Of a DNA stretch of 64,000 nucleotides, positions 9,250-50,370 are shown piece after piece (position 1 is the first letter of the stretch; every line of letters begins with the position of its first letter). The stretch spans positions 3,693 through 67,692 of the forward strand of contig JADZED010000049.1 in NCBI GenBank assembly GCA_020850715.1. The letters run 5' to 3'. Both the position numbers and the translations under genes were made by a program. The DNA is from Acidobacteriota bacterium. GTDB taxonomy: Bacteria > Acidobacteriota > Vicinamibacteria > Vicinamibacterales > CAVVIG01. The notes below the pieces were generated by a model. It did not search any database and had not been told where the DNA came from. It saw only the letters and a list, made by a program, of their open reading frames with translations.

Positions 9250-10164
9250 TCAGGCCTGCTCCACGACCGGCGCCATCTCTCGCACCTTCCGGCGGAAGCC
9301 CTCCAGCAGGCGGGTCGTCACCGGCCCGGGCGTGCCGGCGCCGATCCGCCTATCGTCGACCTGCACGATCGGGACGATCTCGCGGGTCGTACTCGTGAGG
9401 AAGCACTCGTCGGCGCCGAACAGGTCGGCGTCTCGAAGCACCTGCTCACGCACCGGGATCCCCGCATCCGCCCCCACCTCGAACAGGAAGCCCCGGGTGA
9501 TGCCCGGCAGCAGGCCGGCATCGATCGGCGGCGTGAGAGCGGCGCCTTCCGAGACGACGAACAGATTCGATTGCGTGCACTCGACGAGCTCGCCGCGGTA
9601 GTTGCGCATGATCCCCTCGTACGCGCCGCGGGCGAACGCCCGCTGCATGGCGAGCGCGTTGTTCAGCAGGTTGTTCGACTTGATGAGAGGGCTGAGCGCC
9701 TGCGGATGGTTCCGCACGACGTCGACCAACGCCACCGTCACGCCGGCCGCGAAGACCGCAGCCGGCGGATCGACGTGCGGCTTCACGATGATGACGATCG
9801 TCGGCGCCGGGCAGGCCGCCGGGTCGTACGTGAGTTCGCCGACGCCGCGGGTGACGAGGATGCGTATGTAGGCCTCGCCGCCAGAGCCGCCCCTCAGCCC
9901 TGCGGCGGTCATCGTCTCGGCGATCTGGCGCCGGAGATGAGCGTCGTCGGGCGGAACCGCGAGCGCGATCATGCCGGCCGAGGCCCGCAGCCGCTGCATG
10001 TGCCGCTCGAACAGGAACGGCTGGCCTTGGTAGGTGCGCAGGGTCTCGTACACGCCCTCGCCGTAGAGAAAGCCGTGATCGAAAACCGGGACGACCGCGT
10101 CCTTCCCGTCGAAGATGGATCCGTTGACGTTGACGAAGGCAGCCACGCCTGCAGCGTACATCAT
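9250..10164 (-). CDS. Class IV (fold type IV) PLP aminotransferase, branched-chain/D-amino-acid aminotransferase-like
   Basis: PVFDHGFLYGEGVYETLRTY, FLFERHMQRLRASA, IKSNNLLNNALA, ECTQSNLFVV and GITRG motifs. Confidence 0.85.
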   Translation of the reverse strand: MMYAAGVAAFVNVNGSIFDGKDAVVPVFDHGFLYGEGVYETLRTYQGQPFLFERHMQRLRASAGMIALAVPPDDAHLRRQIAETMTAAGLRGGSGGEAYIRILVTRGVGELTYDPAACPAPTIVIIVKPHVDPPAAVFAAGVTVALVDVVRNHPQALSPLIKSNNLLNNALAMQRAFARGAYEGIMRNYRGELVECTQSNLFVVSEGAALTPPIDAGLLPGITRGFLFEVGADAGIPVREQVLRDADLFGADECFLTSTTREIVPIVQVDDRRIGAGTPGPVTTRLLEGFRRKVREMAPVVEQA

Positions 10165-10202
10165 GAAGTCCGCCGCGCAAAACCCTGGAGTAAGATGCCC
10201 GG

Positions 10203-11750
10203 ATGCGGGTCCTGAACGCGGCGCAGATGCGCGAGGCGGATCGGCGGACGATCGAGGAGATCGGCATCGGATCGCTGGTGCTGATGGAGAACGCCGGCCG
10301 GCAGGTCGTGGCGGCGATCGAAGCCCAGCACGGCGACCTGCTGGAGCGCCGGGTGGCCGTTCTGTGCGGCCGGGGCAACAACGGCGGCGACGGCTTCGTC
10401 GTCGCGCGGACGCTGTGGCAGCGCGGCATCGACGTGGCCGTCTTCCTGATCGGGTCCGTCGCGGAGGTGCGCGGCGACGCGCGCGTCAACCTCGAGATCC
10501 TCGGCCGACTCGGGATCGCCGTTGTCGAAGTGGCCGATAGCCAGGCCTGGGAGCTTCACGTCTCCGAGGTGCTGGACTGCGCGCTCATCGTCGATGCGAT
10601 TCTCGGCACCGGCCTCAACGCGCCGGTCACCGGCCTCCTCGAATCGCTCATCGCGGACGTCAATGCCTCCGGCGTCCCCGTCGTCTCGGTCGACCTGCCG
10701 TCCGGGTTGTCGGCCGATACGCCGGACACGCGCGGCGCCTCGATCGAGGCCGGCCTCACGGTAACGCTCGCGGCTCCGAAGCTTCCGCTCGTGCTGCCGC
10801 CGGCGGAAGTGCGCGCCGGCGACGTCGTCATCGCCGATATCGGCATCCCCACGGCGGTGGTCGACGCACTCGACGGTCCCCGTCTCGATCTGCTCACGCG
10901 GGCATCGGTCCGGACGCTAATCCCGCCTCGCGCCGCCGACAGCCACAAGGGAGACTACGGGCATGTGTTCGTGGTGGCCGGATCCTCAGGCAAGACGGGG
11001 GCCGCGCACCTCGCCGCCGTCGGCTCGCTCAGGTCGGGCGCCGGTCTCGTCACCGTCGCGACGCCCGCCGGGGTGCGGGCGATCGTCGCGGCGATGGGCA
11101 CGGAGTACATGACCGAAGCGCTCGCGGAAGGAGCGGATGGCCTCGATCCGGATGGCGTCGAGCGCCTCCTCGAGCTGGCGCGCGACGTCATCGCGATCGG
11201 CCCTGGCCTGGGGCAGGCCGGCGACACGCGGCGGTTCGTGCAGGCGCTCGTCGATCGTGCGACGATGCCGCTGGTGGTCGACGCCGACGGGCTCAATGCC
11301 TTCGTCGCCGAGCCGGACATGCTGGCGGGCCGCGACGGGCGTCCGGTGATCATCACGCCTCACCCCGGCGAAATGGCGCGGCTGGTCGGCATGTCGGCGG
11401 ACGAGGTGCAGGCGAGCCGGCTCGAGGTCGCACGCAACTTCGCGATCGCGCATCGGGTCTACGTGGTGTTGAAGGGCCACCGCACGCTAATCGCGACGCC
11501 GGACGAGAAGGTGTTCATCAATCCGACCGGGAATCCCGGAATGGCAACGGGCGGAACCGGCGACCTGCTCACCGGCATGATCGCCGCATGGGTCGGGCAG
11601 CTCCTCGACGCCGAAGCCGCGTGCAAGATCGCCGTCTACCTGCACGGTCTGGCAGGCGATCTCACGCGGGCGGAGCAGGGGGAGGTCGCGATGACCGCCG
11701 CCGACATTGCCGAGCGGATCGGGGACGCGATCACCGAGATTGGGGACTAG
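10203..11750 (+). CDS. nnr: Bifunctional NAD(P)H-hydrate repair enzyme (NAD(P)HX epimerase / ADP-dependent dehydratase)
   Basis: N-terminal YjeF_N domain (LMENAGRQV...CGRGNNGGDGFVVAR) plus a C-terminal carbohydrate-kinase domain (HKGDYGHVFVVAGS...GNPGMATGGTGDLLTG). Confidence 0.92.
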   Translation: MRVLNAAQMREADRRTIEEIGIGSLVLMENAGRQVVAAIEAQHGDLLERRVAVLCGRGNNGGDGFVVARTLWQRGIDVAVFLIGSVAEVRGDARVNLEILGRLGIAVVEVADSQAWELHVSEVLDCALIVDAILGTGLNAPVTGLLESLIADVNASGVPVVSVDLPSGLSADTPDTRGASIEAGLTVTLAAPKLPLVLPPAEVRAGDVVIADIGIPTAVVDALDGPRLDLLTRASVRTLIPPRAADSHKGDYGHVFVVAGSSGKTGAAHLAAVGSLRSGAGLVTVATPAGVRAIVAAMGTEYMTEALAEGADGLDPDGVERLLELARDVIAIGPGLGQAGDTRRFVQALVDRATMPLVVDADGLNAFVAEPDMLAGRDGRPVIITPHPGEMARLVGMSADEVQASRLEVARNFAIAHRVYVVLKGHRTLIATPDEKVFINPTGNPGMATGGTGDLLTGMIAAWVGQLLDAEAACKIAVYLHGLAGDLTRAEQGEVAMTAADIAERIGDAITEIGD

Positions 11751-11787
11751 GAACCTGAAGCCGAATCCAGGAGTTGGCGCGCGGGCG

Positions 11788-12201
11788 GTGGAACGGACGC
11801 AGTCGGCGGCCGGAACGGCGGCTGTCGGACGTCTGGTTGCGGCACGCCTGGAGCCGGGTTCGGTCGTGCTCTTGTGCGGCGATCTCGGGGCCGGGAAGAC
11901 GGCGTTCGTGAAGGGGCTGGCCGAAGGTCTCGGGGTGCCGCCGGAAGAGGTCAGCAGCCCGACGTTCACGCTCGTGCAGGAATACCGCGGCGGCCGGCTG
12001 CTGCTGTATCACGTCGATCTGTACCGTCTGAACGATCCCCGCGAGATCGAGGATCTGGGCCTCGACGAGATAGCGGCCGATGGCGTCCTGGCCGTCGAGT
12101 GGGCGGAGAAGTGGCCGCGCCCGCCCGATGGCGCCGTCGTCGTCCGGATCGTCCATGGCAACGACGACGAGCGCACCATCGAGATCGGGAATCTGGAATG
12201 A
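11788..12201 (+). CDS. tsaE: tRNA t6A37 biosynthesis ATPase TsaE (YjeE)
   Basis: LCGDLGAGKTAFVKGLAEGLG...SPTFTLVQEY...HVDLYRL. The start is uncertain. I chose the GTG at 11788 because the ORF-track start at 11707 overlaps nnr. Confidence 0.85.
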   Translation: MERTQSAAGTAAVGRLVAARLEPGSVVLLCGDLGAGKTAFVKGLAEGLGVPPEEVSSPTFTLVQEYRGGRLLLYHVDLYRLNDPREIEDLGLDEIAADGVLAVEWAEKWPRPPDGAVVVRIVHGNDDERTIEIGNLE

Positions 12202-19553: not shown

Positions 19554-19749
19554 CCCCCCCGCCGGCTGCAAGGAGCGCCGCCACCATGCCCGCGGCGCGG
19601 ATTCAACGACTTACCGGCGATGATCCACGCCGGGTGGCATTTGCTGCCGTGCGGGCGTGCCTCCCGGCGTGCAGAGACTGATCAAAGAGTGCGTCGACGC
19701 CGATACCCTGTGTGTCCTATTCTCTAAGCCCATCTGGAGAGCGAGTCCC

Positions 19750-22479
19750 ATGCTTGATGCGTTCAAGAACATGACCGGCGGAAAGGCCCGGCAGGAGAAG
19801 CAGGTCTCCGAACTGGAGACGCTGATCGCGACCGCCCGCGAGGAGCGGACGGCCATCAGCGCCATGCTCAGCTCGCTGACTGCCCGCAGCGCGAAACTGA
19901 TGCCGCTCGGGAAGTCGCTCGAGCAGTTGACGGAGAAGGCCGCCACGGCCGCGACCCGCCTCGACGACATCGCCAAACGCCTGGCGTCGCTCGACGACCG
20001 GGCCAAGGATCTGGCCGAGGTCGACAAGCGCATCCAGGCGCTCAAGGAAGCCGCCAGGCAGGCCGAAGTCACGACGCAGAAAGCGCTCGGGCCCGACGGG
20101 GAGCTGCAGAAGCATCGCGAGGCCGTGCAGCACCTCTCGTCGCAGGCGCTGCAGACGCAGGCGACGCTCGACACGCTGAAGAAGGAGCGGACCGCCCTGG
20201 AGGATCTCCGGTCGCAGCTGCACGAGTCGGAAGGGGAGGTCAGGCAGTCGCTCGGCCAGGCATCCTCGCTGCGCGGAGAGCTCGATCAGATCCGCAGCGC
20301 GGCGACGACGCTCACCCAGGACTTCACGAAGATCCGCGAGTCGTCGCGCGAAGCGCGCGAAGACACCAACGCGGCGGTTGCCACGGTCAAGGAGGTCGAG
20401 AAGAAGCTCGTGCCGCTCCAGCAGCTCCACGAGCTGAGCCAGAGCACGGAAGAGCGCCTGAGCGCGCTGAACGCGCTCGCCGAGCATGTCTCCCGCAAGG
20501 CGAAGGCGCTCGACAGCCAGCAGCAGGCCGTCGAGCACGCCGTGGTTCAGGCGAACCGCGTCAACGAGATGGTCTGGTCGATGGACGCGCAGATCGCCAG
20601 GATCACCGAGGGCATGAAACAGGTTGCCCGCGCCGACGACACGATCGCGCGGATCGAGAAACTGAGCCAGGACACCGATCGGCAGATGGAGGCGGCCGCC
20701 AAGCTGCGGCAGGAAACCGAGCGTGAGACCGGCAAGCTGACCAAAGAAGCCGGCGTGGTGCTCGAGTCGGTGCGCGGGCAGGTCGACACGCTCGCGCTCA
20801 AGAAGAAGGAGTTCGAGGCATTCGAGGAGCGGCTGCGGGCACTGCAGGCATCGGTCGGCGACGCGGAAGCACGGATGCAGGCGATCGCGGCAAAGGACAA
20901 GCACCTGATCGCGCTGGGTGAGAAGACCGATGGGCTGTCGAAGCGGTTCGAGACGCTCTTCGGCCAGGCCGACGATCTCACCAGGCGCCAGCTCTCGCTC
21001 GAGGCGCTGCACGAGCGGCTCGCGCAGGTCGACGACCTGGCGAAGAAGGCCGCCTGGCAGATGGACGCGCTGAAGCAGAGCCGACAGGACCTCGACACAC
21101 TCCGCGGCGAGATTCAGGAGTTCCACAAAGCGCACGCGGACGCGGCGAAACTGGGCGACCGGCTGGGCGCCGATCGTCTCGCCCTGGAGACGTTCGTCGA
21201 GCGCATGAACGCGTTCTCGGCGCAGACACCCGAGCTCGAAGCAAAGCTCGACGGCATCACGAACAAGCTGAAGGCGGTCGAAGAGGGCGCGCAGAAGGCT
21301 ACCCGTCTGCAGGAGTCGGTCGCGGAGCTCGACGCGCAGATCTCGCGGGTGAGCGCCCGGCTGCCGTTCGTCGAGAAGCTCGAAGGCCGGCTCAACGGCC
21401 TCAACGTGCTGAGCGCCGAAGTCGATCGGAAGCTCGAAGAGCAGCTCGCGCGCCGCGCGGAGCTCGACACGTTGAAGACGGCGTGCGACGAGCTCGGGGC
21501 GCAGATGGAGAACGCTCAGCACAAGCTCGAAGGCGTTCACGCGCTCCAGACCCGGCTCGTGCCGCTGGTCGCCGAGCTCAGCGCGCTCCGCAAGGAGATT
21601 GGCGTTGCGCAGGAGCGCATCGGCGGGATCAAGCACGACGAAGCGGCGGTCGCCGAGCAGGAGAAGCGCTTCGCCGAACTGCTCGGCTCGAGCCGCGCGG
21701 TCGCCGCGGAAGTCGGCGAACGCACGAGGCAGATGCAGGCGCTGGCCGAGGAGCTCACCCGCGCGACCGGCGTCAAGGACGATCTGCTCGCCGAGCTGGA
21801 TCGCGTCCAGAGCCGCCAGCGCGACGCGCTGGGCCAGGTGCAGGCGACCGAGGATCAGCTCGCGCGCGCCGAGAACATGTTCAAACAGCTCGAGCAGCGG
21901 CGGACGCAGGTCGCTTTCGGCGAGAAGAAGCTCGCGGCCGTCGAGTCGCGTCTCGCCGAGATCAAGCAGCTGGCGACGCAGCTCGACGCGCACCTGGCCT
22001 CAGTCGCCGGCCGCGAGCAGGTCGTCCTCGCGGTGAAGGATGCCGTCGAACACGTGCACCAGATCAGCGCGCGGAGCAAGGCCGACCTGGATCACGTCGC
22101 CGCGCACCGGAGCGAGGTCGCGACGCTCAAGACCAGTGTGGACGAACTGCTGTCGCGGATCGCCGAGACCGACTCGCGAATGACGGCCATCGACGGCCGG
22201 CGCAAGATGGTCGACGAGGTGCAGACGAAGGCGAACGCCATCGTGCACCTGCTCGACGACGTGCGCATCAACCTCGAGACGCTCGGCGAACAGAAGGCCG
22301 TGGTGGACCACGTCGCGGAGAAGGCAGCAAAGCTGGAGTTCGTGCTGCAGGAGGCGCGCCAGACGCTGCGCACGCTGCAGCACGAGCGCGAACTGGCCGA
22401 ACGCATCGAGCAGGGTATCCGGCAGCTGCGCGCGACCGGCAAGCCCGACGAGAAGCGTCCGGCCCAGCAGGCCGGGTAA
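19750..22479 (+). CDS. 909-aa coiled-coil-rich protein of unknown function
   Basis: Continuous Ala/Glu/Leu/Gln/Arg/Lys-rich heptad-like sequence from residue ~15 to the C-terminus. I recognised no Walker, TM or signal motif. The start at MLDAFKNMTGG is chosen over the upstream GTG. Confidence 0.7.
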   Translation: MLDAFKNMTGGKARQEKQVSELETLIATAREERTAISAMLSSLTARSAKLMPLGKSLEQLTEKAATAATRLDDIAKRLASLDDRAKDLAEVDKRIQALKEAARQAEVTTQKALGPDGELQKHREAVQHLSSQALQTQATLDTLKKERTALEDLRSQLHESEGEVRQSLGQASSLRGELDQIRSAATTLTQDFTKIRESSREAREDTNAAVATVKEVEKKLVPLQQLHELSQSTEERLSALNALAEHVSRKAKALDSQQQAVEHAVVQANRVNEMVWSMDAQIARITEGMKQVARADDTIARIEKLSQDTDRQMEAAAKLRQETERETGKLTKEAGVVLESVRGQVDTLALKKKEFEAFEERLRALQASVGDAEARMQAIAAKDKHLIALGEKTDGLSKRFETLFGQADDLTRRQLSLEALHERLAQVDDLAKKAAWQMDALKQSRQDLDTLRGEIQEFHKAHADAAKLGDRLGADRLALETFVERMNAFSAQTPELEAKLDGITNKLKAVEEGAQKATRLQESVAELDAQISRVSARLPFVEKLEGRLNGLNVLSAEVDRKLEEQLARRAELDTLKTACDELGAQMENAQHKLEGVHALQTRLVPLVAELSALRKEIGVAQERIGGIKHDEAAVAEQEKRFAELLGSSRAVAAEVGERTRQMQALAEELTRATGVKDDLLAELDRVQSRQRDALGQVQATEDQLARAENMFKQLEQRRTQVAFGEKKLAAVESRLAEIKQLATQLDAHLASVAGREQVVLAVKDAVEHVHQISARSKADLDHVAAHRSEVATLKTSVDELLSRIAETDSRMTAIDGRRKMVDEVQTKANAIVHLLDDVRINLETLGEQKAVVDHVAEKAAKLEFVLQEARQTLRTLQHERELAERIEQGIRQLRATGKPDEKRPAQQAG

Positions 22480-22531: not shown

Positions 22532-24256
22532 TCAGTTGGCGGGCCTGTAGACCGTAATCCGCAATCCGGCCATCAACCGCGTGGGCGCGGGCAGCCGCGG
22601 ATTCCACGAGCGCAGCGCATCGACTGTCGTCTTGAACAGGCGGGCGACCGAGAAGAGCGTGTCGCCCTGCCGGATGCGGTAGGTGATCTTCACGCGGTCG
22701 GACACTGCGTCCTCTGCCAGCGCCCCGGCCGCATCGACCGTCGGGCGCACCTCGGCCGGCGGCGCCGGCTGTTCGGTGGCCGCCGCCATGAGCGGCGTCG
22801 CCTCGCGCGGCACGATCAGCTTGTCGCCAATCCGCACCCGCGCGCCCGTCTTCAGGTAGTTCGCCTCCGCCAGATCGGTCCGGCTCACGCGCAGCTTCCG
22901 CGCAATCGTCGAGAGCGTGTCCCCCTTCTTGGCCGTGTACCAGTTGAGCGTGACGAGATCCTCGCCGGATGTCTCGGCGATCCTCTCGAGCACCGCGTCG
23001 CCGGTGCCGAAGGGCACCTTCAGCTCGTACGATTCGGCTTTCACGGGGGTCGTCCATCGGCGCAGTTCGGGATTGAGCGCCTGGATCGCGTCCACGGTCG
23101 TGTCGGCCCACTCGGCGATTCGCCTGAGATCGACCGCCTGCGGGAGCGTGACCTTGTCGTAGGGCTGAGGCGGCTCGGTCGTGAGCTCGAAGCCGTACTG
23201 CGTCGGATTCCGCGCGATCACGATCGCCGCCAGAATCATCGGCACGTAGGCGCGCGTTTCGCGCGGCAGCACGCGCGGCTTCTCGGCGAGCGTCCAGAAG
23301 TCCGTGCTGCGGGCGCGCTTGATTGCCTTCTGCACCCGGCCCGGTCCGCCGTTGTACGAGGCCAGCGCCAGGTGCCAGTCGCCGTCGAAGAGGCCGCTGA
23401 GCGTCTTGAGATACTTCGCGGCCGCGACCGTCGCCTTCTGCGGGTCCGACCGCTCGTCCACATACCAGTCGGTGTGCAGGCCGTTCTCGCGGGCCGTCGC
23501 GGCCATGAACTGCCAGACGCCCTTGGCGCGCGCGCGGGAAAGGGCGTTGGGCTTGAAGGCGCTCTCGATCAGCGGCACGTAGGCGAGATCGAGCGGCAGC
23601 CCCTCGGCGCGGAACACGCTCTGGATCATCGGGAGATACCTGCTGCCGCGCTGCATGCCCTCCTGGATGAAATCGTGCAGCCGTCCCTGGAACAGCTCGA
23701 TGTAGGAGAGCACCCGGTCGTTCAGCGGAATCGGGATGTCATGGACGACATGGTCGAGATCGGAGCGCACGGCCCCGGCCAGGCCGGCCGCCGGCGCCGG
23801 CTCCCCGAAGGTGGACGACAGCGCCAGCAGGTCGTCGATGGACGCCGGCTCATACGGCTTCTCGGTGAAGCCGTCGCCCTGCGCGAGCGCCTTGATCTCG
23901 TACGCGCTGATGCGGTCGACCAGCCAGTCGAATCGCTCGCGCACCCGCGAGTCGGCGCGGCCGCCGAATGGCGACTCCAGCAGGACGTCGATCGCCTGGT
24001 TGAACTCCTGTTTGGCCGCCTCGAAATGCCCGGCGTCGAGCGCCTGCTGCCCTGCGCGGAAGTGCGTGTCGGAGGTCGCAATCAGCGCGTCGACCGGATC
24101 GTCGGCCGGCGCCTGCGGCCCGAGCACCGGCTCGGGAGGCGGCAGCAAGGGGATGGGCCTGCCTCGGGACGCCGACCCGCCAAGAGCCGAACTGCAGGCC
24201 GCGACGAAGGGAAGCAGCGCGAGAAGGACCCGCAACTGCCACTGAGCTCGTACCAT
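22532..24256 (-). CDS. MltD-like membrane-bound lytic transglycosylase lipoprotein with C-terminal LysM repeats
   Basis: Lipobox LPFVAAC. SLT core LAYVPLIESAFKPNALSRARAKGVWQFM...ASYNGGPG. At least two LysM repeats (YTAKKGDTLSTIARKL..., YRIRQGDTLFSVARLF...). Confidence 0.88.
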   Translation of the reverse strand: MVRAQWQLRVLLALLPFVAACSSALGGSASRGRPIPLLPPPEPVLGPQAPADDPVDALIATSDTHFRAGQQALDAGHFEAAKQEFNQAIDVLLESPFGGRADSRVRERFDWLVDRISAYEIKALAQGDGFTEKPYEPASIDDLLALSSTFGEPAPAAGLAGAVRSDLDHVVHDIPIPLNDRVLSYIELFQGRLHDFIQEGMQRGSRYLPMIQSVFRAEGLPLDLAYVPLIESAFKPNALSRARAKGVWQFMAATARENGLHTDWYVDERSDPQKATVAAAKYLKTLSGLFDGDWHLALASYNGGPGRVQKAIKRARSTDFWTLAEKPRVLPRETRAYVPMILAAIVIARNPTQYGFELTTEPPQPYDKVTLPQAVDLRRIAEWADTTVDAIQALNPELRRWTTPVKAESYELKVPFGTGDAVLERIAETSGEDLVTLNWYTAKKGDTLSTIARKLRVSRTDLAEANYLKTGARVRIGDKLIVPREATPLMAAATEQPAPPAEVRPTVDAAGALAEDAVSDRVKITYRIRQGDTLFSVARLFKTTVDALRSWNPRLPAPTRLMAGLRITVYRPAN

Positions 24257-24433: not shown

Positions 24434-26230
24434 TCATCCTCGCCAGGGCACGACCGAGAGCAGGTGGTGCGGTTCGGCCAGGTCCCGCGCGGCCGGCGTG
24501 ATGATCGCGCGCTCGGACACGACAAGCGTGCGTCCCGTCTTGAGCGCCAGACGGACGTCCTCCTCGCAGACGAAGTCGAGTGGAGCCTCGCCGGGTACGG
24601 ACGGCGGCGGGGCGGCAGGCGCGGCGGCGGGCGCCGCGGTCAGGCCCGTGGGCGGGGAGCCCGGCGCGGCGCCCTCCGGCCTGAGTCCGCGCGAGCCGAG
24701 GAATTCGTCGATCCGTTGGGCGAGCGCGCCCGCCGGGATTCCCCTGGCAGCCGCCGGTCTTGGCGGAGCGGCCGGCAGCCGCGGCGCCCCGGCAACCTCG
24801 ACCGCCGATGGCGGCCGGCCCGACGCCGCGCGCTCGAAGCGATTCTGGACCGGCGTGATCTCGTAGGCCAGCCGTTTGACGTTCAGCAGGTGGAGCGGCG
24901 AAATGTTGTCCGACGTGATGTTCCCGCCGTAGCCGCCGCAGCCGAGGGTCATCGACGGATCGAGCCCGGTGGTCAGACCGATCGAGCCGAACGTGGTCGG
25001 CGTGTTCACGACGATCCGGAACGCCGGCTTCTTCAGGCCGAACTCGAGGATGATCGGCTCGCTGCGCGAATGGATGGACATCGTGTGGCCCATTCCGCCG
25101 TAGCGAAGGATCTGCCTGCAGCGTTCGCACCCCTCCTGCCAGTCCCGGACCACGTAGAACGCGAGCACGGGACAGAGCTTCTCGATGGACAGCGGATAGT
25201 CACGGCCGACACCCTCGAGCTCGGCGATCAGCACGCGCGTCCCGGCCGGCACGCCGACGCCGCACTGCTCGGCGATGAATGCGGCGCTCCTGCCGACCAG
25301 CCGCGGATTGGGCAGCCGCTGCGGCGTGACGAGGAGGCGTGCAACCGCTTCTGCTTCGGCGCGGCCGAGGAAGTACGCGCCCTGCGCCTGGAACTGGCGG
25401 CGTACCTCTTCGGCGATCGGCTCGTCGACCACCACCGAGTTCTCCGATGAGCAGAGCAGGCCGTTGTCGAACGTCTTGCCGGTGATGACGTCGCGCACCG
25501 CCTTGCCGACATCCGCGGTCCGCTCGATGAACGCCGGCGCGTTGCCCGGGCCGACGCCGTAGGCCGGCTTGCCGGCGCTGTAGGCGGCCCGCACCAGCCC
25601 CATCCCGCCCGTGGCCAGAATGACCGACACGTCGCGATGCCGCATCAGTTCCTGCGTGCCCTCGAGGCTGACGGTCGTCATCCAGTTGATCGCGCCCGGC
25701 GGCGCGCCGGCGCGCCGGGCCGCCTCGTCCAGCACCTCCGCGACCGCGGTGATGCACTTCACGGCGGAGGGGTGCGGACTCAGCACGATCGTGCAGCGCG
25801 CCTTGATCGCGATCAGGATCTTGTAGATCGCCGTCGAGGTCGGGTTGGTCGACGGCACGACGGCGGCCACGACCCCGAATGGCTCGGCGATCTCGACGAC
25901 CCGCTTATCGTCGTGCCGCGCGACGACCCCGACCGTCTTCATCGGCCGGATGAAGCGATAGATCTTCTGCGACGCGAACAGATTCTTCTGGATCTTGTCT
26001 TCGATCACGCCGAAGCCGGTTTCGTCGGCCGCCTGGCGGGCGAAGGCTTCGGCGTGCGAGGTCGCGGCCGCCGCCATGGCGTCGACCATCGCGTCGATGC
26101 GCTCCTGGTCGAGCTCCGCGAGCTGGAGCCATGCCTGCCTGGCGCGGCGTGCCAGTGCGCGCGCCTCGGCGATGGAGGCCAGGTCGCGATCGGTCGGGGG
26201 GAGAACGGCCGGATCAGTCACGAACGTCAC
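24434..26230 (-). CDS. CoA-acylating-type aldehyde dehydrogenase (AdhE/EutE/PduP-like ALDH domain) with ~135-aa C-terminal extension
   Basis: [21 protein letters not shown]...[16 protein letters not shown] contains the catalytic Cys context. The C-terminal extension has a Pro/Ala-rich linker, the amphipathic helix [16 protein letters not shown], and a terminal 49-aa module. The gene lies 76 nt downstream of a BMC-H gene. Confidence 0.85.
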
Positions 26231-26306
26231 TCCGCCGCGACCGGGGCCGGCGCGGTTTCGGCCCCGGCTGCAGCGCTCGTCTGCAGGCAGTCCTGACGCG
26301 TGAGCT

Positions 26307-26579
26307 TCACTTGGGCAGAATTCGTTCGACTTCGCCGTGCGGGCGCGGAATCACGTGGACAGACACGAGCTCGCCCACGCGCCGCGCGGCGGCGGCGCCC
26401 GCGTCGGTCGCCGCCTTCACGGCGCCGACGTCGCCGCGGACCATCACGGTCACGTAGCCGGCGCCGATGTACTCCTTGCCGACCAGCACGACGTTCGCCG
26501 CCTTGACCATCGCATCGGCGGCCTCGATCGATCCGATGAGTCCGCGGGTTTCAACCAGCCCGAGCGCTTCGGCCGCCAT
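26307..26579 (-). CDS. Bacterial microcompartment shell protein, BMC-H (PduA/EutM/CcmK-type single BMC domain)
   Basis: [81 protein letters not shown] is the canonical BMC-domain sequence pattern. Confidence 0.88.
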
Positions 26580-26628: not shown

Positions 26629-26716
26629 GCCGCTCCCGTCCGACAGCGCAACTGGCGAGCAGCCCGGGTGAGGCTCGGACCATCGCATGATCGTGCAGAA
26701 TGGGCGCAGCCCGGCC

Positions 26717-27595
26717 ATGAACGCGACGACAACCCTGTGCACGCTGCTCGCGAGCGCGCTGTTGGCGTGCGGCTGCGGCAGGCCGGTGGAGTCCGAGCCT
26801 GCCGTCGCGACCCCGTCGGTCGCGCTCAGCCACGATCGCGCGCCGCTCGGCAGCCCGATCGACATCACCTACAGATTCGTTCCGGAGCCCGGCGCGAGCT
26901 TCGACGAGGACTACCGCGTCATGGTCCACGTCGTCGACATCGACGACGAGCTGATGTGGACCGACGACCACGACCCGCCGGTCCCGACGACCCAATGGAA
27001 GGCGGGGACGCCGGTCGAGTACACGCGCACCGTGTTCATTCCGGTGTATCCGTACGTCGGCGAGGCGTCGATCCAGGTGGGCCTGTACTCGACGCGCGGC
27101 GAGAAGCGCCTCGCGCTCTCCGGCAACGACACCGGCCAGCGCGCGTATGCGGTCGCGCGGCTGCAGCTGCTGCCGCAGACCGAGAACATCTTCACGCTGT
27201 TCAAGGATGGCTGGCACCAGGCGGAAGTGGCCGACACCAACACGTCGGTCGAATGGCAGTGGACGAAGAAGGACGCGACGCTGGCGTTCAAGAACCCGAA
27301 GAAGGACGCGACCTTCTACCTTGACGCGGACAACCCGGGCAACGTCTTCCACGACACGCAGCTGGTTACCGTGTCGATCAACGGGACGGTGGCACGGCAG
27401 TTCAGTCTCGCGCCGACCGAGCGTACCCTGCAGCGGATCCCGCTGCCGGCCGCCCAGCTCGGCGAGGGCGAAATGATTAGCCTCCAGATCGGCGTCGACA
27501 AGACGTTCGTGCCCGCGCTGGTGCCGCAGTCGACCAACCAGGATGCCCGAGAGCTCGGCATCCGTGTGTTCCATGCCTTCGTGGACGCTCGATGA
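26717..27595 (+). CDS. Lipoprotein of unknown function (first gene of the secretion/pilus operon)
   Basis: Signal peptide plus lipobox [21 protein letters not shown] recognised no catalytic motif. Its stop overlaps the next start (ATGA). Confidence 0.6.
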
Positions 27596-28251
27596 CGAGG
27601 CGGCCGGCGTGCTCGGCGGCCGTCGTGTCCCTGGCGTTGATCGCGTGCGGCGCCGCGCCTGCGAGCGCCGAACTGGCATTCTTCGCCACCGGGCGGACGC
27701 TTTCCATCAGCGGTCATCACCTGGAGGGCGGTGCGCTCGTGCTGACGCTGCGCAGCGGCGGCACGATCATCTGTGAACCGTCGATGATCTCCTCGATCGA
27801 GCCAGACGAGGTGCCGTATCCCGAGCCGCCGGTGGCGCAGGTCCCGCGCAGGGCGCCTGCGGCCGCCGCGCCGGCGTCCGCCGCGCGCTACGCAGCGGCG
27901 ATCGAACGGGTGTCGACGGCCGAGGGGGTCGATCCGGATCTCGTGCGTGCGGTGATTCAGGTGGAGTCGGCGTATCGTGCCGAGGCTCGATCGCCCAAAG
28001 GCGCGATGGGGCTGATGCAGCTGATGCCGTCGATCGCGCGGCAGTACGGCCTGGACGACCCGTTCGATCCGGTGGCGAACCTCGCGGCGGGCATCAGACA
28101 CCTGAAGCGTCTGCTGCTGCGCTATCCGCCGGCGCTGGCGCTGGCCGCCTACAACGCCGGCGAGGGCGCGGTGGCGCGCTTTGGCGGCATCCCGCCCTAT
28201 CCGGAGACGCGCGCGTATGTCTCGCGCGTGCTCGCCCTGGCGGGGAGCTGA
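27592..28251 (+). CDS. Soluble-lytic-transglycosylase (SLT, GH23) domain lipoprotein
   Basis: Lipobox SLALIACG. SLT motifs VIQVESAYRAEARSPKGAMGLMQLMP and AAYNAGEGAV. Confidence 0.85.
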   Translation: MTRRPACSAAVVSLALIACGAAPASAELAFFATGRTLSISGHHLEGGALVLTLRSGGTIICEPSMISSIEPDEVPYPEPPVAQVPRRAPAAAAPASAARYAAAIERVSTAEGVDPDLVRAVIQVESAYRAEARSPKGAMGLMQLMPSIARQYGLDDPFDPVANLAAGIRHLKRLLLRYPPALALAAYNAGEGAVARFGGIPPYPETRAYVSRVLALAGS

Positions 28252-47051: not shown

Positions 47052-49412
47052 CTATGTCCGGGCGCTGAGAATCAGATAGCCCGCCACGGCTCCAAACAGG
47101 ATATTCGGCGCCCATGCCGCCAGCATCGGCGCAATCCATCCGGCGGCGCCGATCGCCCCGAACACGCTCATCGCCGTCCAGTACACGATCGCGACGACGA
47201 TGCCGATCCCGATGCCGTACAGCGCGCCGCGCCTGCCGGTCGTCACGGCGAAGGGCACCGCGAGCATCGTCATGATCAGCGTAACGAACGGAAAGGCGAT
47301 CTTCCGCTGGAGCTGCACCATGTAGGGCACGGCGTTGAAGCCGCTGACGTGCAACTGCTCGACGTAGGTCCTGAGCTCCCGATACGTCATGCGCTCGGCG
47401 TCAGGTTCGTCGGTCTTGAAATAGTCGGGGGGCTCGAGATCGATCGCGCGTTGCGTGAACGGGTCGTAGGTGACCTTGACCGCACCCGTGTCGGTCCCAG
47501 CCGGGTCGGCGAACGTACGCCGCCAGCCGTCGCGCGCCGTCCAGCCGGGCGTCGGACCGCCGTTTCGAACCAGGTCGACCTGCCGGGCATACATCAGGCC
47601 GCTCAGGCGCCATCGGCCGGGATCGAGCTGGTAGGTCGATAGATTGTTGAAGCGGTTCGTCCGCGCATCGAAGAAGTCGTAATGGTAGATGTCGCCGTTC
47701 TCGGACACGATCCAGCGTCGATCCAGCGCGCCTTCGCTGAGCGGCGGATAGCCGCGGATGACGCGATTCAGCTGCCCCGCCTCGCGATTCGAGTAGGCGA
47801 GCACCTTCTCCTGCAGGCCGAACAGCAGCGCGCTCGCGAGCAGCGCGAAAGCGACCAGCGGCGCGGCGGCACGGTAGAGGCTGATGCCGCACGCCTTCAT
47901 GATCACGAGCTCGCTGTTCTTCGTCATCAGCCCTATGGTGACCAGCGCCGACACGAGCGCCGCCATCGGGATCACGTAGTAGACGAATTGGGGCGTCTGG
48001 AAGAAGAAGTAGCGCAGCATCACGCCCGCAGTCGTGTTGCCGCGAAACAGCTTCTCGGCCAGGTCCATGAAGGTGGAGATGTAGAAGATGCCGAGCAGCG
48101 ACACGACCGCAACGACGAAGGTCCGCAGGTACTGTCGCGCGACGTAGAGATCCAGCAGGCCGGGCCGCGGCAGGTTCAGGTGCGGCACGCGGACGACGAG
48201 CACAACGCGCGGGGGCGGCTGCACGACCGCCGCGCTTCCGGGCCCCGGGGCGCCCCCGGCAGGAGGAACCCGGCGCCAGAACGCCGGGATCGTGAGCCGG
48301 ATCGGCTGGTCGGCCGACCGCACGCGCCAGGCCAGCAGCAGCGTGCCCGCGACGGCAATCAGGATGTTCGGCAGCCACGGTCCGAGCTCTGCCGGCAGCT
48401 GGCCGCCCTTGGCGAGCGAGCGGCCGGTCCACATGATGATGTAGTAGACGAAGACGACGCCGAAGCCGAGCACGAAGCTCGCAAGCTTGCCGTCCTTGCG
48501 ATGGCTCACGCCAAGCCCCAGGCCGATCAGCGCCAGCACCAGGCAGGCCGCCGGGAGCGAGAACTTCTGCTGAATCATCAGCCGCTGGTCGTAGGCCGGA
48601 TCGGCGCGCGCGGCGGCGGCGGCGATGTCCGCCCGCAGTTCCGCGATCGTCATCTCCGGCGCGCCCTTCAGGATCTGAACGCGCGGGAACACCGTCTCGG
48701 CATCGAGGTTGAGCACCACCGTCTCGAGGGTCGAGGTCTCGTACTCATCCGGCTTTGCCGCGAACGTCGTATGGCGCGCGGCCGCCGTCAGGACGAGCTG
48801 CACCGTCCGTTTGCCCTGGTCGACGAGGAGCCGGCCCTCCCTGGCGAAGTACACCGTCGTCTGGCCAGGCTGCGTCGAATCGGCGAGGAAGACGTCCTGC
48901 CACCGGCCGTCGGTCGCGCGGTCGCGGACATACAGCACCCGGTTCGGGAACTGGTCGAAGAACACGCGCGGCTTCACGTCGTTCTGGGCCTTGGAGGCGA
49001 CGACGCCGAAGGTAATCTCGCGGAAGCGCTGGTTGGCCTGGGGAAGCGCGACGATGGTCACCCAGGCGTTGAAGGCGCAGGCGGCGATGGCGAGCACGCC
49101 GATCGGCCAGAGCAGGCGCAGCACGCTGACGCCGCACGCCTGCAGCGCCACGAACTCGCGGTCGGCCGACATCCGCCCGAGCGCCATCAGGATGCCGACG
49201 AGCAGCGCCATCGGGATCACGATGCTCAGCGAGGAGGGGAGCAGCGTGATCAGGACCTGGACGACGGTGTACCAGTCGACACCCTTCTCGATCAGCTTCT
49301 CCCCCTGATCCAGAATGACCGGGATCTCGAGGACGAAAGCGAGAAGCACCAGTCCGATCAGGAAGGGGACCAGCGCCTGGCGCACCAGGTACCGATCGAG
49401 GAGTCTCAGCAC
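47052..49412 (-). CDS. Fused LptF-LptG LPS-export permease (two YjgP/YjgQ modules in one reading frame)
   Basis: Module 1 begins (V)LRLLDRYLVRQALVPFL... . Module 2 begins ...GLLDLYVARQYLRTFVVAV... . There is no stop codon between them. Each module has the 6-TM plus periplasmic beta-jellyroll layout. Confidence 0.8.
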   Translation of the reverse strand: MLRLLDRYLVRQALVPFLIGLVLLAFVLEIPVILDQGEKLIEKGVDWYTVVQVLITLLPSSLSIVIPMALLVGILMALGRMSADREFVALQACGVSVLRLLWPIGVLAIAACAFNAWVTIVALPQANQRFREITFGVVASKAQNDVKPRVFFDQFPNRVLYVRDRATDGRWQDVFLADSTQPGQTTVYFAREGRLLVDQGKRTVQLVLTAAARHTTFAAKPDEYETSTLETVVLNLDAETVFPRVQILKGAPEMTIAELRADIAAAAARADPAYDQRLMIQQKFSLPAACLVLALIGLGLGVSHRKDGKLASFVLGFGVVFVYYIIMWTGRSLAKGGQLPAELGPWLPNILIAVAGTLLLAWRVRSADQPIRLTIPAFWRRVPPAGGAPGPGSAAVVQPPPRVVLVVRVPHLNLPRPGLLDLYVARQYLRTFVVAVVSLLGIFYISTFMDLAEKLFRGNTTAGVMLRYFFFQTPQFVYYVIPMAALVSALVTIGLMTKNSELVIMKACGISLYRAAAPLVAFALLASALLFGLQEKVLAYSNREAGQLNRVIRGYPPLSEGALDRRWIVSENGDIYHYDFFDARTNRFNNLSTYQLDPGRWRLSGLMYARQVDLVRNGGPTPGWTARDGWRRTFADPAGTDTGAVKVTYDPFTQRAIDLEPPDYFKTDEPDAERMTYRELRTYVEQLHVSGFNAVPYMVQLQRKIAFPFVTLIMTMLAVPFAVTTGRRGALYGIGIGIVVAIVYWTAMSVFGAIGAAGWIAPMLAAWAPNILFGAVAGYLILSART

Positions 49413-49464
49413 CGGAGCGACCAGATTAGCACCATCGCTGATACGAGGCGGCGCACGGACGCGC

Positions 49465-50370
49465 CTACCCCCAGGCCCCGTTGTCGGCGTATCCCAGCCG
49501 GCGAAGCTCCGCGCCGGCGACCTCCTCGAAGATCGCCCTCGCGTCCGCGTCGAACAGCTCGCGCCAGCGTCCGGCTCGCCCGACATTGAACGTCGCGGCC
49601 TGCTGGTCGAACAGGCGATCGCAAATCCCTTCGATTCGCGAGTCCTGATGCTGGAGCCCGAGGAAGGACGCAATCCGCGCGATCTCGGCGCGCTGGCGTT
49701 CTCGAGTCCCTCCGCCTCTCTCGCCGACGAGCGTCTCGAACCGCGAGAAGATCACGCGGGGATGTTGCTCCCACAGGAGGTAGCTGCGCAACACCGTGCC
49801 GATGTCGGCAAAGCCCGTGTAGCCGTCATAGTACCCGGAGCGCACGACCGCTTCGTCCCGCCGGCAGGCGGCCGCCGGCGCTCCAACGATGGCGGCCCGC
49901 AGCTTGGCGGCCTCGTCGGGCAGCGATTCGAAGTATGCGCGAAGCACGTGCGGCTTCAGGCGGCAGACGTGGTCGACGAACGAGATCACGACATCGCGGG
50001 GATCGCGCAGCATCACGACGACGCGCAGGTCCATCCGCGCGGCCATGCGGAGCACGGGTGGGCTCGCGGCCAGGTGACCCCAGGCAAAACGGGTTCCGGC
50101 CATCCGCGCGAGTTGCGCCGCATGACGCTGCCACGGCTGATAGGGCTCCAAGGTCAGCGGGCGGCGCCGCAGCTCGAGAAGGCCGTTGAGCGCGCCCATC
50201 AGCAGGTGTGTCCCGGCCTTGGGCGCCGAGGTCAGCAGGATCTTGCTCCCAGAGGAGCCGTCGCGAAATCGATCGACCCAATCGAGCAGGGCTTCCTCGC
50301 CGCTGTGGAGCAGGCGCCCGGAATAGGACCGCCAGATCGATTGCGGCTGTGTTGGACGTTCCACTCGCAT
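49465..50370 (-). CDS. PAPS-dependent sulfotransferase family protein
   Basis: 5'-PSB-like motif SAPKAGTHLL and 3'-PB-like motif VVMLRDPRDVVISF. Confidence 0.78.
   Translation of the reverse strand: MRVERPTQPQSIWRSYSGRLLHSGEEALLDWVDRFRDGSSGSKILLTSAPKAGTHLLMGALNGLLELRRRPLTLEPYQPWQRHAAQLARMAGTRFAWGHLAASPPVLRMAARMDLRVVVMLRDPRDVVISFVDHVCRLKPHVLRAYFESLPDEAAKLRAAIVGAPAAACRRDEAVVRSGYYDGYTGFADIGTVLRSYLLWEQHPRVIFSRFETLVGERGGGTRERQRAEIARIASFLGLQHQDSRIEGICDRLFDQQAATFNVGRAGRWRELFDADARAIFEEVAGAELRRLGYADNGAWG

Follow-up and report, generated by a model that had tools for sequence, protein, structure and literature searches.

A probable satellite locus of an ACI-type microcompartment in a Vicinamibacterales-like acidobacterium

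The 64,000 nucleotides of acidobacterial DNA analyzed here (the window) encode, side by side, a BMC-H shell protein and an aldehyde dehydrogenase (AldDH), which very probably constitute the satellite locus of an ACI-type bacterial microcompartment (BMC) in a Vicinamibacterales-like acidobacterium. A preliminary description of the sequence had left two possibilities, namely a satellite of a main locus encoded elsewhere or an orphan, very reduced and uncharacterized shell-plus-enzyme pair. The former is supported and the latter is not, because the pair corresponds to an already catalogued ACI satellite, so that the remaining genes of the compartment would be located elsewhere in the genome. For the window's own genome, such a main locus is to be expected from its relatives and from the published catalogue.

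The gene pair and its surroundings

The BMC-H gene (26307..26579, minus strand) encodes a protein of 90 aa consisting of a single full-length BMC domain, which matches PF00936 from end to end (positions 1-75 of 75, E 1.4e-28), as the preliminary description had proposed. The AldDH gene follows downstream on the same strand as an ORF of 598 aa (24434..26230; PF00171; MCC7417190.1 at NCBI), and the reported distance of 76 nt between the two ORFs (26231..26306) was borne out. The true start of the AldDH is probably a GTG codon at 26221 with a GGAG sequence 9 nt upstream, which would shorten the protein to 595 aa, the length of the NCBI model, and extend the spacer to 85 nt. No terminator-like site is present in the 76-nt spacer, the length of which differs among relatives, and the two genes are presumably co-transcribed. 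A GC hairpin between the genes was rejected as a feature, as its energy is not unusual (z -1.8).

The pair is flanked by genes for an SLT-LysM protein (22532..24256, minus strand) and an SLT protein (27592..28251, plus strand) as well as by a type IV pilus/T2SS-like operon from 28305 onward, which was recognized by its position and by synteny with Pfam-annotated relatives. This agrees with the lytic transglycosylase and the secretion operon described earlier. The window had also been said to contain no other BMC genes, and none were found: in-house HMMs built from 47 BMC-P and 210 BMC-H sequences and run on the six-frame ORFs of at least 50 aa detected no shell gene in the 64 kb beyond the one BMC-H. 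Likewise, Pfam scans of 30 further genes and the neighbours, leaving aside a dozen other, mostly small ORFs, revealed no PTAC, Fe-ADH, class II aldolase, or 2-hydroxyacid dehydrogenase.

The BMC-H protein resembles hexamers of the PduA/EutM type in its single PF00936 domain, an edge lysine (K26), and the motif PRPH at positions 78-81, and it is about 78% identical to what we take to be the reference sequence of PduA. It differs from these proteins in its pore motif, which is GAG instead of GSG, and in being a dedicated satellite paralogue encoded apart from vertex proteins. More than 100 database clusters share 92-98% identity with the protein. The earlier judgement that a single type of BMC-H is unable to close a shell on its own was right.

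The proteins of the window correspond to the NCBI entries MCC7417190/91/95, which derive from a MAG named 'Acidobacteria bacterium'/Acidobacteriota. While the AldDH is 100% identical to a protein of this MAG, it shares 72-78% identity with proteins from Vicinamibacterales, the order for which its nearest relatives are named; one relative MAG is labelled gp6, and Vicinamibacteria correspond to subdivision 6 of the Acidobacteria. The BMC-H gene lies directly upstream of the AldDH gene in all 30 assessable acidobacterial loci, which were retrieved through BMC-H in a search of genome contigs and therefore carry this gene by construction. The adjacency extends over lineages that bear the names Vicinamibacterales, Pyrinomonadaceae, Terriglobia, Sulfopaludibacter, and others. 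Within Vicinamibacterales, the gene content around the pair matches that of the window, with genes for a secretin, PilO/N/M, T2SSE, T2SSF, an SLT protein, and an unknown protein, then BMC-H, AldDH, and an SLT-LysM protein.

The aldehyde dehydrogenase and its C-terminal tail

The catalytic body of the AldDH (aa 13-462; 24845..26194, minus strand) is of the AdhE/EutE-like, CoA-acylating type. The best solved relative found by phmmer against the PDB is 3K9D (E 6e-146 over aa 13-461), and further matches comprise the acetylating enzyme 5J78, AdhE N-domains, and the acetylating SSA-DH 8CEI. Both motifs quoted for this class are present, namely GVGPGN at 225-230 and a ten-residue motif at 254-263, which was aligned with FDNGTICASE of 3K9D and includes the predicted catalytic Cys260 (codon 25451..25453, minus strand). 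Among 120 homologues, the mean column conservation of aa 1-470 is 0.90. The assignment to the CoA-acylating AdhE/EutE/PduP class made in the preliminary description is thus supported by the closest solved structures and by the motifs; the enzyme is predicted to depend on CoA. It shares its ALDH subfamily, and a catalytic Cys within the motif FDNGxxCxxE, with EutE/PduP and the N-terminal domain of AdhE. EutE/PduP serve as aldehyde-consuming core enzymes of metabolosomes, a role that they would share with the ACI AldDH.

The diagnostic feature of the AldDH is a C-terminal tail consisting of an encapsulation peptide (EP) and an extra domain, which had escaped the preliminary description. The tail begins with a poorly conserved, Pro/Ala-rich linker (aa ~463-482; 24785..24844, minus strand), delimited by its composition and low column conservation. 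It is followed by a conserved EP segment (aa ~483-516; 24683..24784, minus strand) with the pattern PRLPxAPxRPAxxxGIxxxALxxRIDxFLGSRG, for which AlphaFold2 predicts a helix at aa 500-513 (24692-24733, minus strand; pLDDT of the block 81-84). A second poorly conserved linker rich in Pro, Ala, and Gly (aa 517-549; 24584..24682, minus strand; pLDDT ~52) makes the EP segment a conserved island between variable stretches. The hydrophobic moment of the proposed EP is 0.42-0.54; as 0.42 is reached by 12% of shuffled sequences, its amphipathicity is unremarkable. The protein ends with a conserved domain of about 50 aa (aa 550-598; 24437..24583, minus strand), which has a conservation of 0.83, is retained across acidobacterial lineages in the alignment, and is predicted by AlphaFold2 to adopt a beta-alpha-beta-alpha-beta arrangement (pLDDT 88-94). 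All of the closest 120 database relatives of the AldDH, the best of at least 8000, carry the ACI tail, whereas it is absent from cytosolic relatives, with PDB matches stopping near aa 460. In EutE/PduP the EP is short and N-terminal, whereas the ACI AldDH has it inside a long C-terminal tail, ahead of an additional folded module.

The ACI catalogue and the main loci of relatives

The ACI-type BMC and its satellite locus have been described in the catalogue of Sutter, Melnicki, Schulz, Woyke & Kerfeld (2021, Nat Commun 12:3809, Supplementary Data 2). According to this work, the type occurs only in Acidobacteria, mainly in subdivisions 4 and 6, and its AldDh is consistently encoded on a satellite, separate from the main locus. 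Toward its C-terminus, this enzyme carries an EP and then a domain of unknown function of about 50 aa, and it is "occasionally" accompanied by a BMC-H of the class H_fuchsia (standard PRPH) or H_royalpurple (PRPF). The main locus encodes a class II aldolase (PF00596) with a C-terminal EP, a 2-hydroxyacid dehydrogenase, a BMC-P triplet, a BMC-H, and a protein of about 80 aa with three Cys residues; a substrate similar to fuculose phosphate or rhamnulose phosphate has been suggested for the aldolase (Sutter et al. 2021).

Comparison with this catalogue shows that the architecture of the window matches the ACI satellite, from which it does not differ structurally: the host is acidobacterial, the AldDH is encoded off the main locus, and a BMC-H with the motif PRPH is adjacent. 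The anatomy of the tail also agrees with the catalogue description (helix at 500-513 followed by a 49-aa domain). The motif at 78-81, taken by itself, is consistent with H_fuchsia. In contrast to the "occasional" association reported there, the AldDH follows BMC-H in every one of the loci found here, all of which were found via BMC-H. Luteitalea and Vicinamibacter are not named in the catalogue supplements (Sutter et al. 2021). Judging from the MCC accession series, the MAG containing the window was probably deposited after the data freeze of the catalogue in March 2020 and would therefore be a further instance of the ACI satellite.

In the search of genome contigs with BMC-H, only satellites consisting of BMC-H and AldDH were found in Acidobacteria, with no main locus within ±10 kb. 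Main loci were recovered with a GC-biased degenerate DNA pattern for BMC-P and agree with the catalogue. They encode, in this order, PdxJ, a TPR protein, a 3-Cys protein of about 86 aa, an aldolase with EP, BMC-H, three BMC-P, a protein of about 70 aa, and a 2-hydroxyacid dehydrogenase (2-Hacid_dh), and they contain neither an AldDH nor a PTAC. Thus, compared with EutE/PduP systems, both the ACI satellite and the main locus lack a PTAC and an alcohol dehydrogenase. The two loci coexist in the MAG GCA_035259385.1, where contig DATFWL010000088.1 bears the satellite, whose AldDH shares 72% identity with that of the window, and contig DATFWL010000394.1 bears the main locus with the aldolase with EP, BMC-H, three BMC-P, and the 2-hydroxyacid dehydrogenase. 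The two loci were linked through the proximity of their accessions (HJZ71444, HJZ75481), and the evidence for their co-occurrence is strong but not absolute, as MAG bins can mix related populations. The BMC-H of the window shares 94% identity with the satellite BMC-H of this MAG, but only 77-79% with main-locus BMC-H proteins, marking it as a distinct satellite paralogue. Accessions of the MCC7417xxx series were not among the top aldolase matches. A complete BMC locus of known type is therefore present in a relative, and for the genome of the window it is presumed from relatives and the catalogue.

That a relative has this pair in matching surroundings together with a full main locus also bears on the most serious rival, according to which the main locus has been lost and the pair is a truly orphan system, in which sheets or tubes of BMC-H scaffold the AldDH without a closed shell. 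The lack of any other BMC gene within 64 kb would fit such a system, which is nevertheless highly improbable given this coexistence and the consistent placement of the AldDh on a satellite in the catalogue. Furthermore, at least 8000 relatives were found for each of the AldDH and the aldolase, including many proteins from soil metagenomes that bear the same lineage names, and the retention of the EP and the terminal module points to encapsulation of the AldDH. Slightly less probable still is a satellite of another BMC type with an ACI-related AldDh, such as FRAG8 or MIC3. In the catalogue, the FRAG8 AldDh, which has a C-terminal EP, is the closest to that of ACI, and the ACI AldDh is grouped with MIC3; however, FRAG8 is mostly found in Gemmatimonadetes, the catalogue trees label MIC3 entries as Planctomycetes, the window and all its close relatives belong to Acidobacteriota/Vicinamibacterales, and this lineage yielded main loci of the ACI type. 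The least probable reading, an ordinary cytosolic AdhE-like AldDH placed beside a shell gene by chance and with no functional link to it, draws on the great similarity of the catalytic body to non-BMC AdhE N-domains and on the presumptive nature of the co-transcription, but it is at odds with the adjacency of both genes across lineages, with a conserved tail that cytosolic relatives lack, and with the recurrence of the terminal module in proteins from BMC loci.

The terminal module and the proposed role of the satellite

The terminal domain of the AldDH has no significant match in Pfam, in profile searches of PDB sequences, or in Foldseek, which returned nothing from the PDB below E 0.28. Three of 19 members matched the C-terminal end of the PduM family (Pfam PDU_like) with E 0.01, too weakly to pass the family cut-off. 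An alignment with residues 4-39 of EutQ from E. coli gave 38% identity over 34 columns with an hhalign probability of 61%; the resemblance is weak and depends on a single short motif, DV/IR..A...G....V....IITPxARD. In local databases, the domain profile matched the termini of EutQ, PduL, EutT-type proteins, and flavoproteins encoded in BMC loci with E values from 2e-7 to 0.1. A search of 1.84 billion representative proteins revealed no other architectures among the best 150 matches listed; the 17 that were inspected completely proved to be AldDH tails, fragments, or chimeric calls, and the others looked similar.

The N-terminal H1/H2 region of EutQ has been described as a shell-cargo linker of the Eut compartment in Salmonella (Sci Adv 2025, PMC12487888), and PduM as a shell-cargo linker of the Pdu compartment (Nat Commun 2022, PMC9132943). 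While these are separate linker proteins, the module of the AldDH is fused to an enzyme that has an EP of its own. Tentatively, the terminal domain could belong to a widespread, uncurated BMC module that is the same as the shell-binding H1/H2 region of EutQ, a proposal derived from sequence comparison that we regard as possible but somewhat less probable than its opposite. Such a module may be characterized by the motif (D/E)-(V/I)-R-x-A-x3-G-x3-V-x4-I-I-T-P-x-A-R-D and a beta-alpha-beta-alpha-beta fold, and it may also occur at the termini of PduL, EutT-type adenosyltransferases, PF02441 flavoproteins, a class II aldolase, and PduM.

As a satellite of an ACI-type BMC, the pair would supply two parts of an organelle, the rest of which would be encoded elsewhere: the aldolase with its C-terminal EP, a second BMC-H, three BMC-P, two small Cys-rich proteins, and the 2-hydroxyacid dehydrogenase. 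Inside the shell, the aldolase would release an aldehyde, probably from a sugar phosphate, which the AldDH would oxidize to an acyl-CoA with NAD+, and oxidation within the shell would confine the toxic intermediate. The AldDH would be recruited by its tail, in which the amphipathic helix between flexible Pro/Ala linkers would act as encapsulation peptide and the terminal module of about 50 aa would provide a second shell contact, as the H1/H2 region does in EutQ. As a conserved paralogue, the co-encoded BMC-H would become part of the shell facets, where it may serve as the docking tile for the AldDH. Parts of an organelle are likewise encoded at a conserved distal site in the case of CcmK3/CcmK4 of beta-carboxysomes and of the HO-type satellite (two BMC-P and an aldolase); such satellites encode either only shell paralogues or an aldolase, whereas the ACI satellite carries the core AldDH.

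The locus is one more copy of a satellite that has already been described, in a very common soil lineage. To our knowledge, ACI compartments have never been studied experimentally, and the at least 8000 relatives of each enzyme indicate that they are abundant in soil Acidobacteria, so that the account given here of the AldDH tail and the two ACI loci represents a useful starting point. What is new is a modest lead, namely that the terminal domain resembles the N-terminus of EutQ in sequence. If this likeness were true, the ACI AldDH, with a classical EP and its own shell anchor, would be a self-contained shell-cargo linker, and the satellite BMC-H would be its dedicated docking tile. Reuse of a EutQ-like module on many BMC enzymes would add another general targeting device to the classical encapsulation peptide, which would bear on the tethering of cargo core and shell and on the engineering of synthetic compartments.

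The BMC-H and aldehyde dehydrogenase genes

Both open reading frames of the pair lie where the preliminary description had placed them. The gene at 26307..26579(-) encodes a 90-aa protein that is matched end to end by PF00936 (E 1.4e-28, Pfam), which confirms it as a BMC-domain protein; an edge lysine (K26), a PRPH motif (78-81) and a GAG pore motif are present. The gene at 24434..26230(-) encodes a 598-aa aldehyde dehydrogenase (AldDH) with a PF00171 match in Pfam. The solved proteins closest to it in sequence are CoA-acylating, namely 3K9D (E 6e-146, aa 13-461), 5J78, the N-domains of AdhE, and 8CEI, and Cys260 is the predicted catalytic residue within a 10-residue motif, which supports the earlier assignment to the CoA-acylating type on sequence grounds. 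At NCBI, the AldDH and BMC-H are found as MCC7417190.1 and MCC7417191.1 of the MAG 'Acidobacteria bacterium', on a contig of 139.5 kb. Among the matches listed, identity to the next AldDH relatives is 72-78%, and all named ones belong to the Vicinamibacterales.

Two in-frame GTG codons at 26221-26230 (-) are candidate starts of the AldDH gene. Because a GGAG sequence lies 9 nt 5' of the second codon and the NCBI model has 595 aa, the 598-aa frame is probably three codons too long, with translation starting at GTG 26221. No terminator-like site was found in the 76-nt spacer between the two genes. An 8-bp GC hairpin in this spacer at 26241-26267 (-), CCGGGGCC ... GGCCCCGG, was rejected as a feature, its folding energy not being unusual (z -1.8). 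Spacer length varies among relatives, the called genes overlapping at one extreme and lying 76 nt apart at the other.

HMMs from 47 BMC-P and 210 BMC-H sequences, run over all six-frame ORFs of at least 50 aa, identified the BMC-H gene as the single shell gene of the window. In Pfam, 30 other genes are of the housekeeping kind (glycine cleavage, SecA, ComM, pilin-like, MetK, XerC, LptFG, ParAB, MiaB, RecN, TolQ/B), and no phosphotransacylase (PTAC), Fe-ADH, class II aldolase or 2-hydroxyacid dehydrogenase is among them. The earlier statement that the window holds no further BMC genes therefore stands. One 873-aa ORF at 47052-49673 (-) has two LptF/LptG permease-family matches; either LptF and LptG are fused in it, or the ORF has been called too long.

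The ACI satellite and its main locus

The pair is an already catalogued satellite locus of the ACI type, the Acidobacteria-exclusive BMC type in the survey of Sutter et al. 2021 (PMC8217296). The ACI AldDh described there lies consistently on a satellite and is sometimes accompanied by a BMC-H (PMC8217296, Supplementary Data 2), and comparison of the AldDH tail and the adjacent BMC-H with the catalogue yields the ACI satellite. The MAG of the window was probably deposited after the catalogue. According to the catalogue, the ACI main locus combines a pfam00596 aldolase, which has an encapsulation peptide (EP) at its C-terminus, with a hydroxyacid dehydrogenase, a BMC-H and a BMC-P triplet; it also encodes small proteins in which Cys or His residues are conserved (PMC8217296).

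Metagenome contigs were scanned with a GC-biased degenerate DNA pattern for the BMC-P motif DxxGAGxGExV. The matches were mostly genuine BMC-P genes, many arranged as a BMC-H with three BMC-P. In five of six such loci with 65-68% G+C, a gene of ~310-350 aa lies immediately 5' of the BMC-H and its product ends ...EIRLTYRELSALIEDAIRSLR; the contig of the sixth stops short of this position. A ~315-aa gene follows the BMC-P triplet, likewise in five of the six. Three of the upstream genes were assigned by Pfam to class II aldolases (PF00596) and two of the downstream genes to D-2-hydroxyacid dehydrogenases (PF00389/PF02826). By their gene content, these loci represent the ACI main locus.

A profile built from four main-locus aldolases retrieved at least 7997 relatives, the best match listed being HJZ75481.1 from a Vicinamibacterales MAG. 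The same assembly, GCA_035259385.1, encodes HJZ71444.1, a 598-aa AldDH with 72% identity to that of the window. Its BMC-H/AldDH pair is located on DATFWL010000088.1 in exactly the neighbourhood seen in the window, and its main locus on DATFWL010000394.1 consists of PdxJ, TPR, an 88-aa protein, aldolase, BMC-H, three BMC-P, a 65-aa protein and 2-Hacid_dh. The other main loci examined have the same gene order in a housekeeping context, and neither AldDH nor PTAC was present in any of them. The preliminary description had called the pair orphan and, as one of two readings, uncharacterised, which would be at odds with a complete BMC locus of known type elsewhere in the genome; such a locus exists in this relative, on another contig than the satellite. 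Together with the catalogue match, this speaks against both terms and supports the other reading it had offered, a satellite of a main locus elsewhere; the main locus is presumably present in the window's own MAG.

Two small proteins recur in the main loci (L216 1216-1482 and 3922-4119; L208 6092-6349 and 8418-8633). The first, ~86 aa, has a hydrophobic N-terminus, three conserved Cys and a TRASH/YHS-like motif (RDPVCG..V.P..AV....G....FCS..CRDKYR). The second, ~70 aa, ends in CLIEP.VRCNHCGYC.S.GH, consistent with the conserved Cys and His of the catalogue's small ACI proteins (PMC8217296), and has an N-terminal amphipathic helix in most copies. Identities are 94-97% among the satellite BMC-H proteins and among those of the main loci, against 76-79% from one group to the other; the two are separate conserved paralogues. 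The BMC-H at L216 2593-2886 differs from that at 26307-26579 of the window at the C-terminus and near the pore loop, where a 14-residue segment of the latter corresponds to GWEKIGAGYVTAIV.

By analogy with characterised metabolosomes and following the catalogue's proposal, the ACI aldolase would generate an aldehyde within the shell, which the AldDH would convert into acyl-CoA with NAD+. Recycling of the cofactor may fall to the 2-hydroxyacid dehydrogenase.

Conservation of the pair and its neighbourhood

Scanning species-representative genomes with the BMC-H of the window yielded 31 acidobacterial loci; 30 of them could be assessed, and in each the AldDH directly follows the BMC-H. The neighbourhood found in the window recurs on Vicinamibacterales contigs, which are as long as 4 Mb. 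On one flank, secretin, PilO/N/M, T2SSE, T2SSF, SLT and an unannotated ~300-aa gene precede the BMC-H; the AldDH is followed by SLT-LysM and then ComM, with a ~900-aa coiled-coil protein between them in several relatives. Given this constant gene order, the pair is a fixed part of the chromosome, inherited vertically rather than inserted recently. The unannotated gene of the window (26687-27595 (+), 302 aa) is divergent from the BMC-H and without a Pfam match, and its N-terminus resembles that of a lipoprotein; a gene of 258-316 aa occupies this site in every Vicinamibacterales relative examined. The 940-aa coiled-coil protein at 19657-22479 (+) has only spurious Pfam hits, and several relatives have a 907-912-aa counterpart in the same place.

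The Pyrinomonadaceae satellite is larger. On chromosome OY970389.1 (L041 10001-16227) it comprises BMC-H, AldDH, BMC-P, ACT, Zn-ribbon, DUF711, an unknown protein and a second BMC-H, and five further subdivision 4 loci (L016, L050, L055, L064, L066) likewise have H, AldDH, BMC-P and a second BMC-H. This expansion fits the catalogue's remark on an occasional fourth BMC-P (PMC8217296).

Four loci of Candidatus Poribacteria (L004, L007, L008, L013, about 10001-11845) carry a lone BMC-H 82-84% identical to that of the window, with no AldDH or BMC-P within ±10 kb. In at least three of them an ORF with the AldDH terminal-domain module follows it; the one in L008 has a weak, sub-threshold match to PF02441 flavoproteins. 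These loci are probably of the catalogue's fragmented (FRAG) type.

The C-terminal tail of the aldehyde dehydrogenase

Over 120 homologues, conservation is 0.90 in the catalytic body, falls to 0.45 in a Pro/Ala-rich stretch and rises again to 0.83 in the last 49 residues, the terminal domain (550-598). The Pro/Ala-rich stretch contains a conserved island, PRLPxAPxRPAxxxGIxxxALxxRIDxFLGSRG. With an alignment of 24 tails, AlphaFold2 predicted residues 500-513 to be helical (block pLDDT 81-84), the linkers to be disordered and the terminal domain to form a beta-alpha-beta-alpha-beta unit (pLDDT 88-94). This domain is conserved as well in the distant AldDH enzymes of Pyrinomonadaceae (subdivision 4). 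This anatomy agrees exactly with the catalogue's ACI AldDh, an EP close to the C-terminus followed by a ~50-aa domain (PMC8217296). The hydrophobic moment of the putative EP helix (0.42-0.54) is not exceptional, so the EP is called on conservation, context and the catalogue rather than on amphipathicity.

The terminal domain had no significant match in Pfam, PDB sequences or Foldseek. When 1.84 billion representative proteins were searched, it lay at the extreme C-terminus in each of the best 150 matches; the 17 examined over their full length proved to be AldDH tails, fragments or chimeric calls. A terminal-domain profile was run on 13,359 ORFs from the retrieved loci and the E. coli eut region. 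After AldDH tails, it matched the C-terminal extension of a PduL-type PTAC (E 1.8e-7), EutQ N-termini including E. coli b2460 (three best E 8e-5 to 0.02, a fourth only 0.8), the N-terminus of E. coli EutT (E 0.08) and C-termini of PF02441 flavoproteins. In 6,659 independent metagenome-locus ORFs, the module was found in another PTAC, an EutT-type adenosyltransferase, a flavoprotein and a class II aldolase. All matches placed adjoin shell or AldDH genes, both ORF sets consisting of BMC loci and their flanks. The motif IITPxARD is common to the terminal domain and the matched BMC-locus proteins; carriers are L051 5202-6224, L192 3865-4713, L087 18503-19306 (E. coli eutT), L094 4215-4952 and L088 1-1080, with further ones in L078, L008, L018, L045 and L145.

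In hhalign, the terminal domain aligned with residues 4-39 of E. coli EutQ at 38% identity (probability 61%), and the match to the PduM C-terminus was sub-threshold. Residues 9-41 (H1/H2) of Salmonella EutQ bind the shell and H3/H4 bind cargo EPs (PMC12487888), and PduM mediates shell-cargo binding (PMC9132943). On account of the matches to the shell-binding N-terminus of EutQ, to PduM and to other BMC-locus proteins, the terminal domain might, as a tentative proposal that we hold to be somewhat doubtful, be a shell-contact module of a recurrent EutQ/PduM kind. The catalogue leaves the function of this domain unknown, and its supplementary text treats EutQ, PduM and flavoproteins without linking them through a shell module (PMC8217296). 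This possible identity of the AldDH terminal domain is the sole new lead that emerges from the pair.
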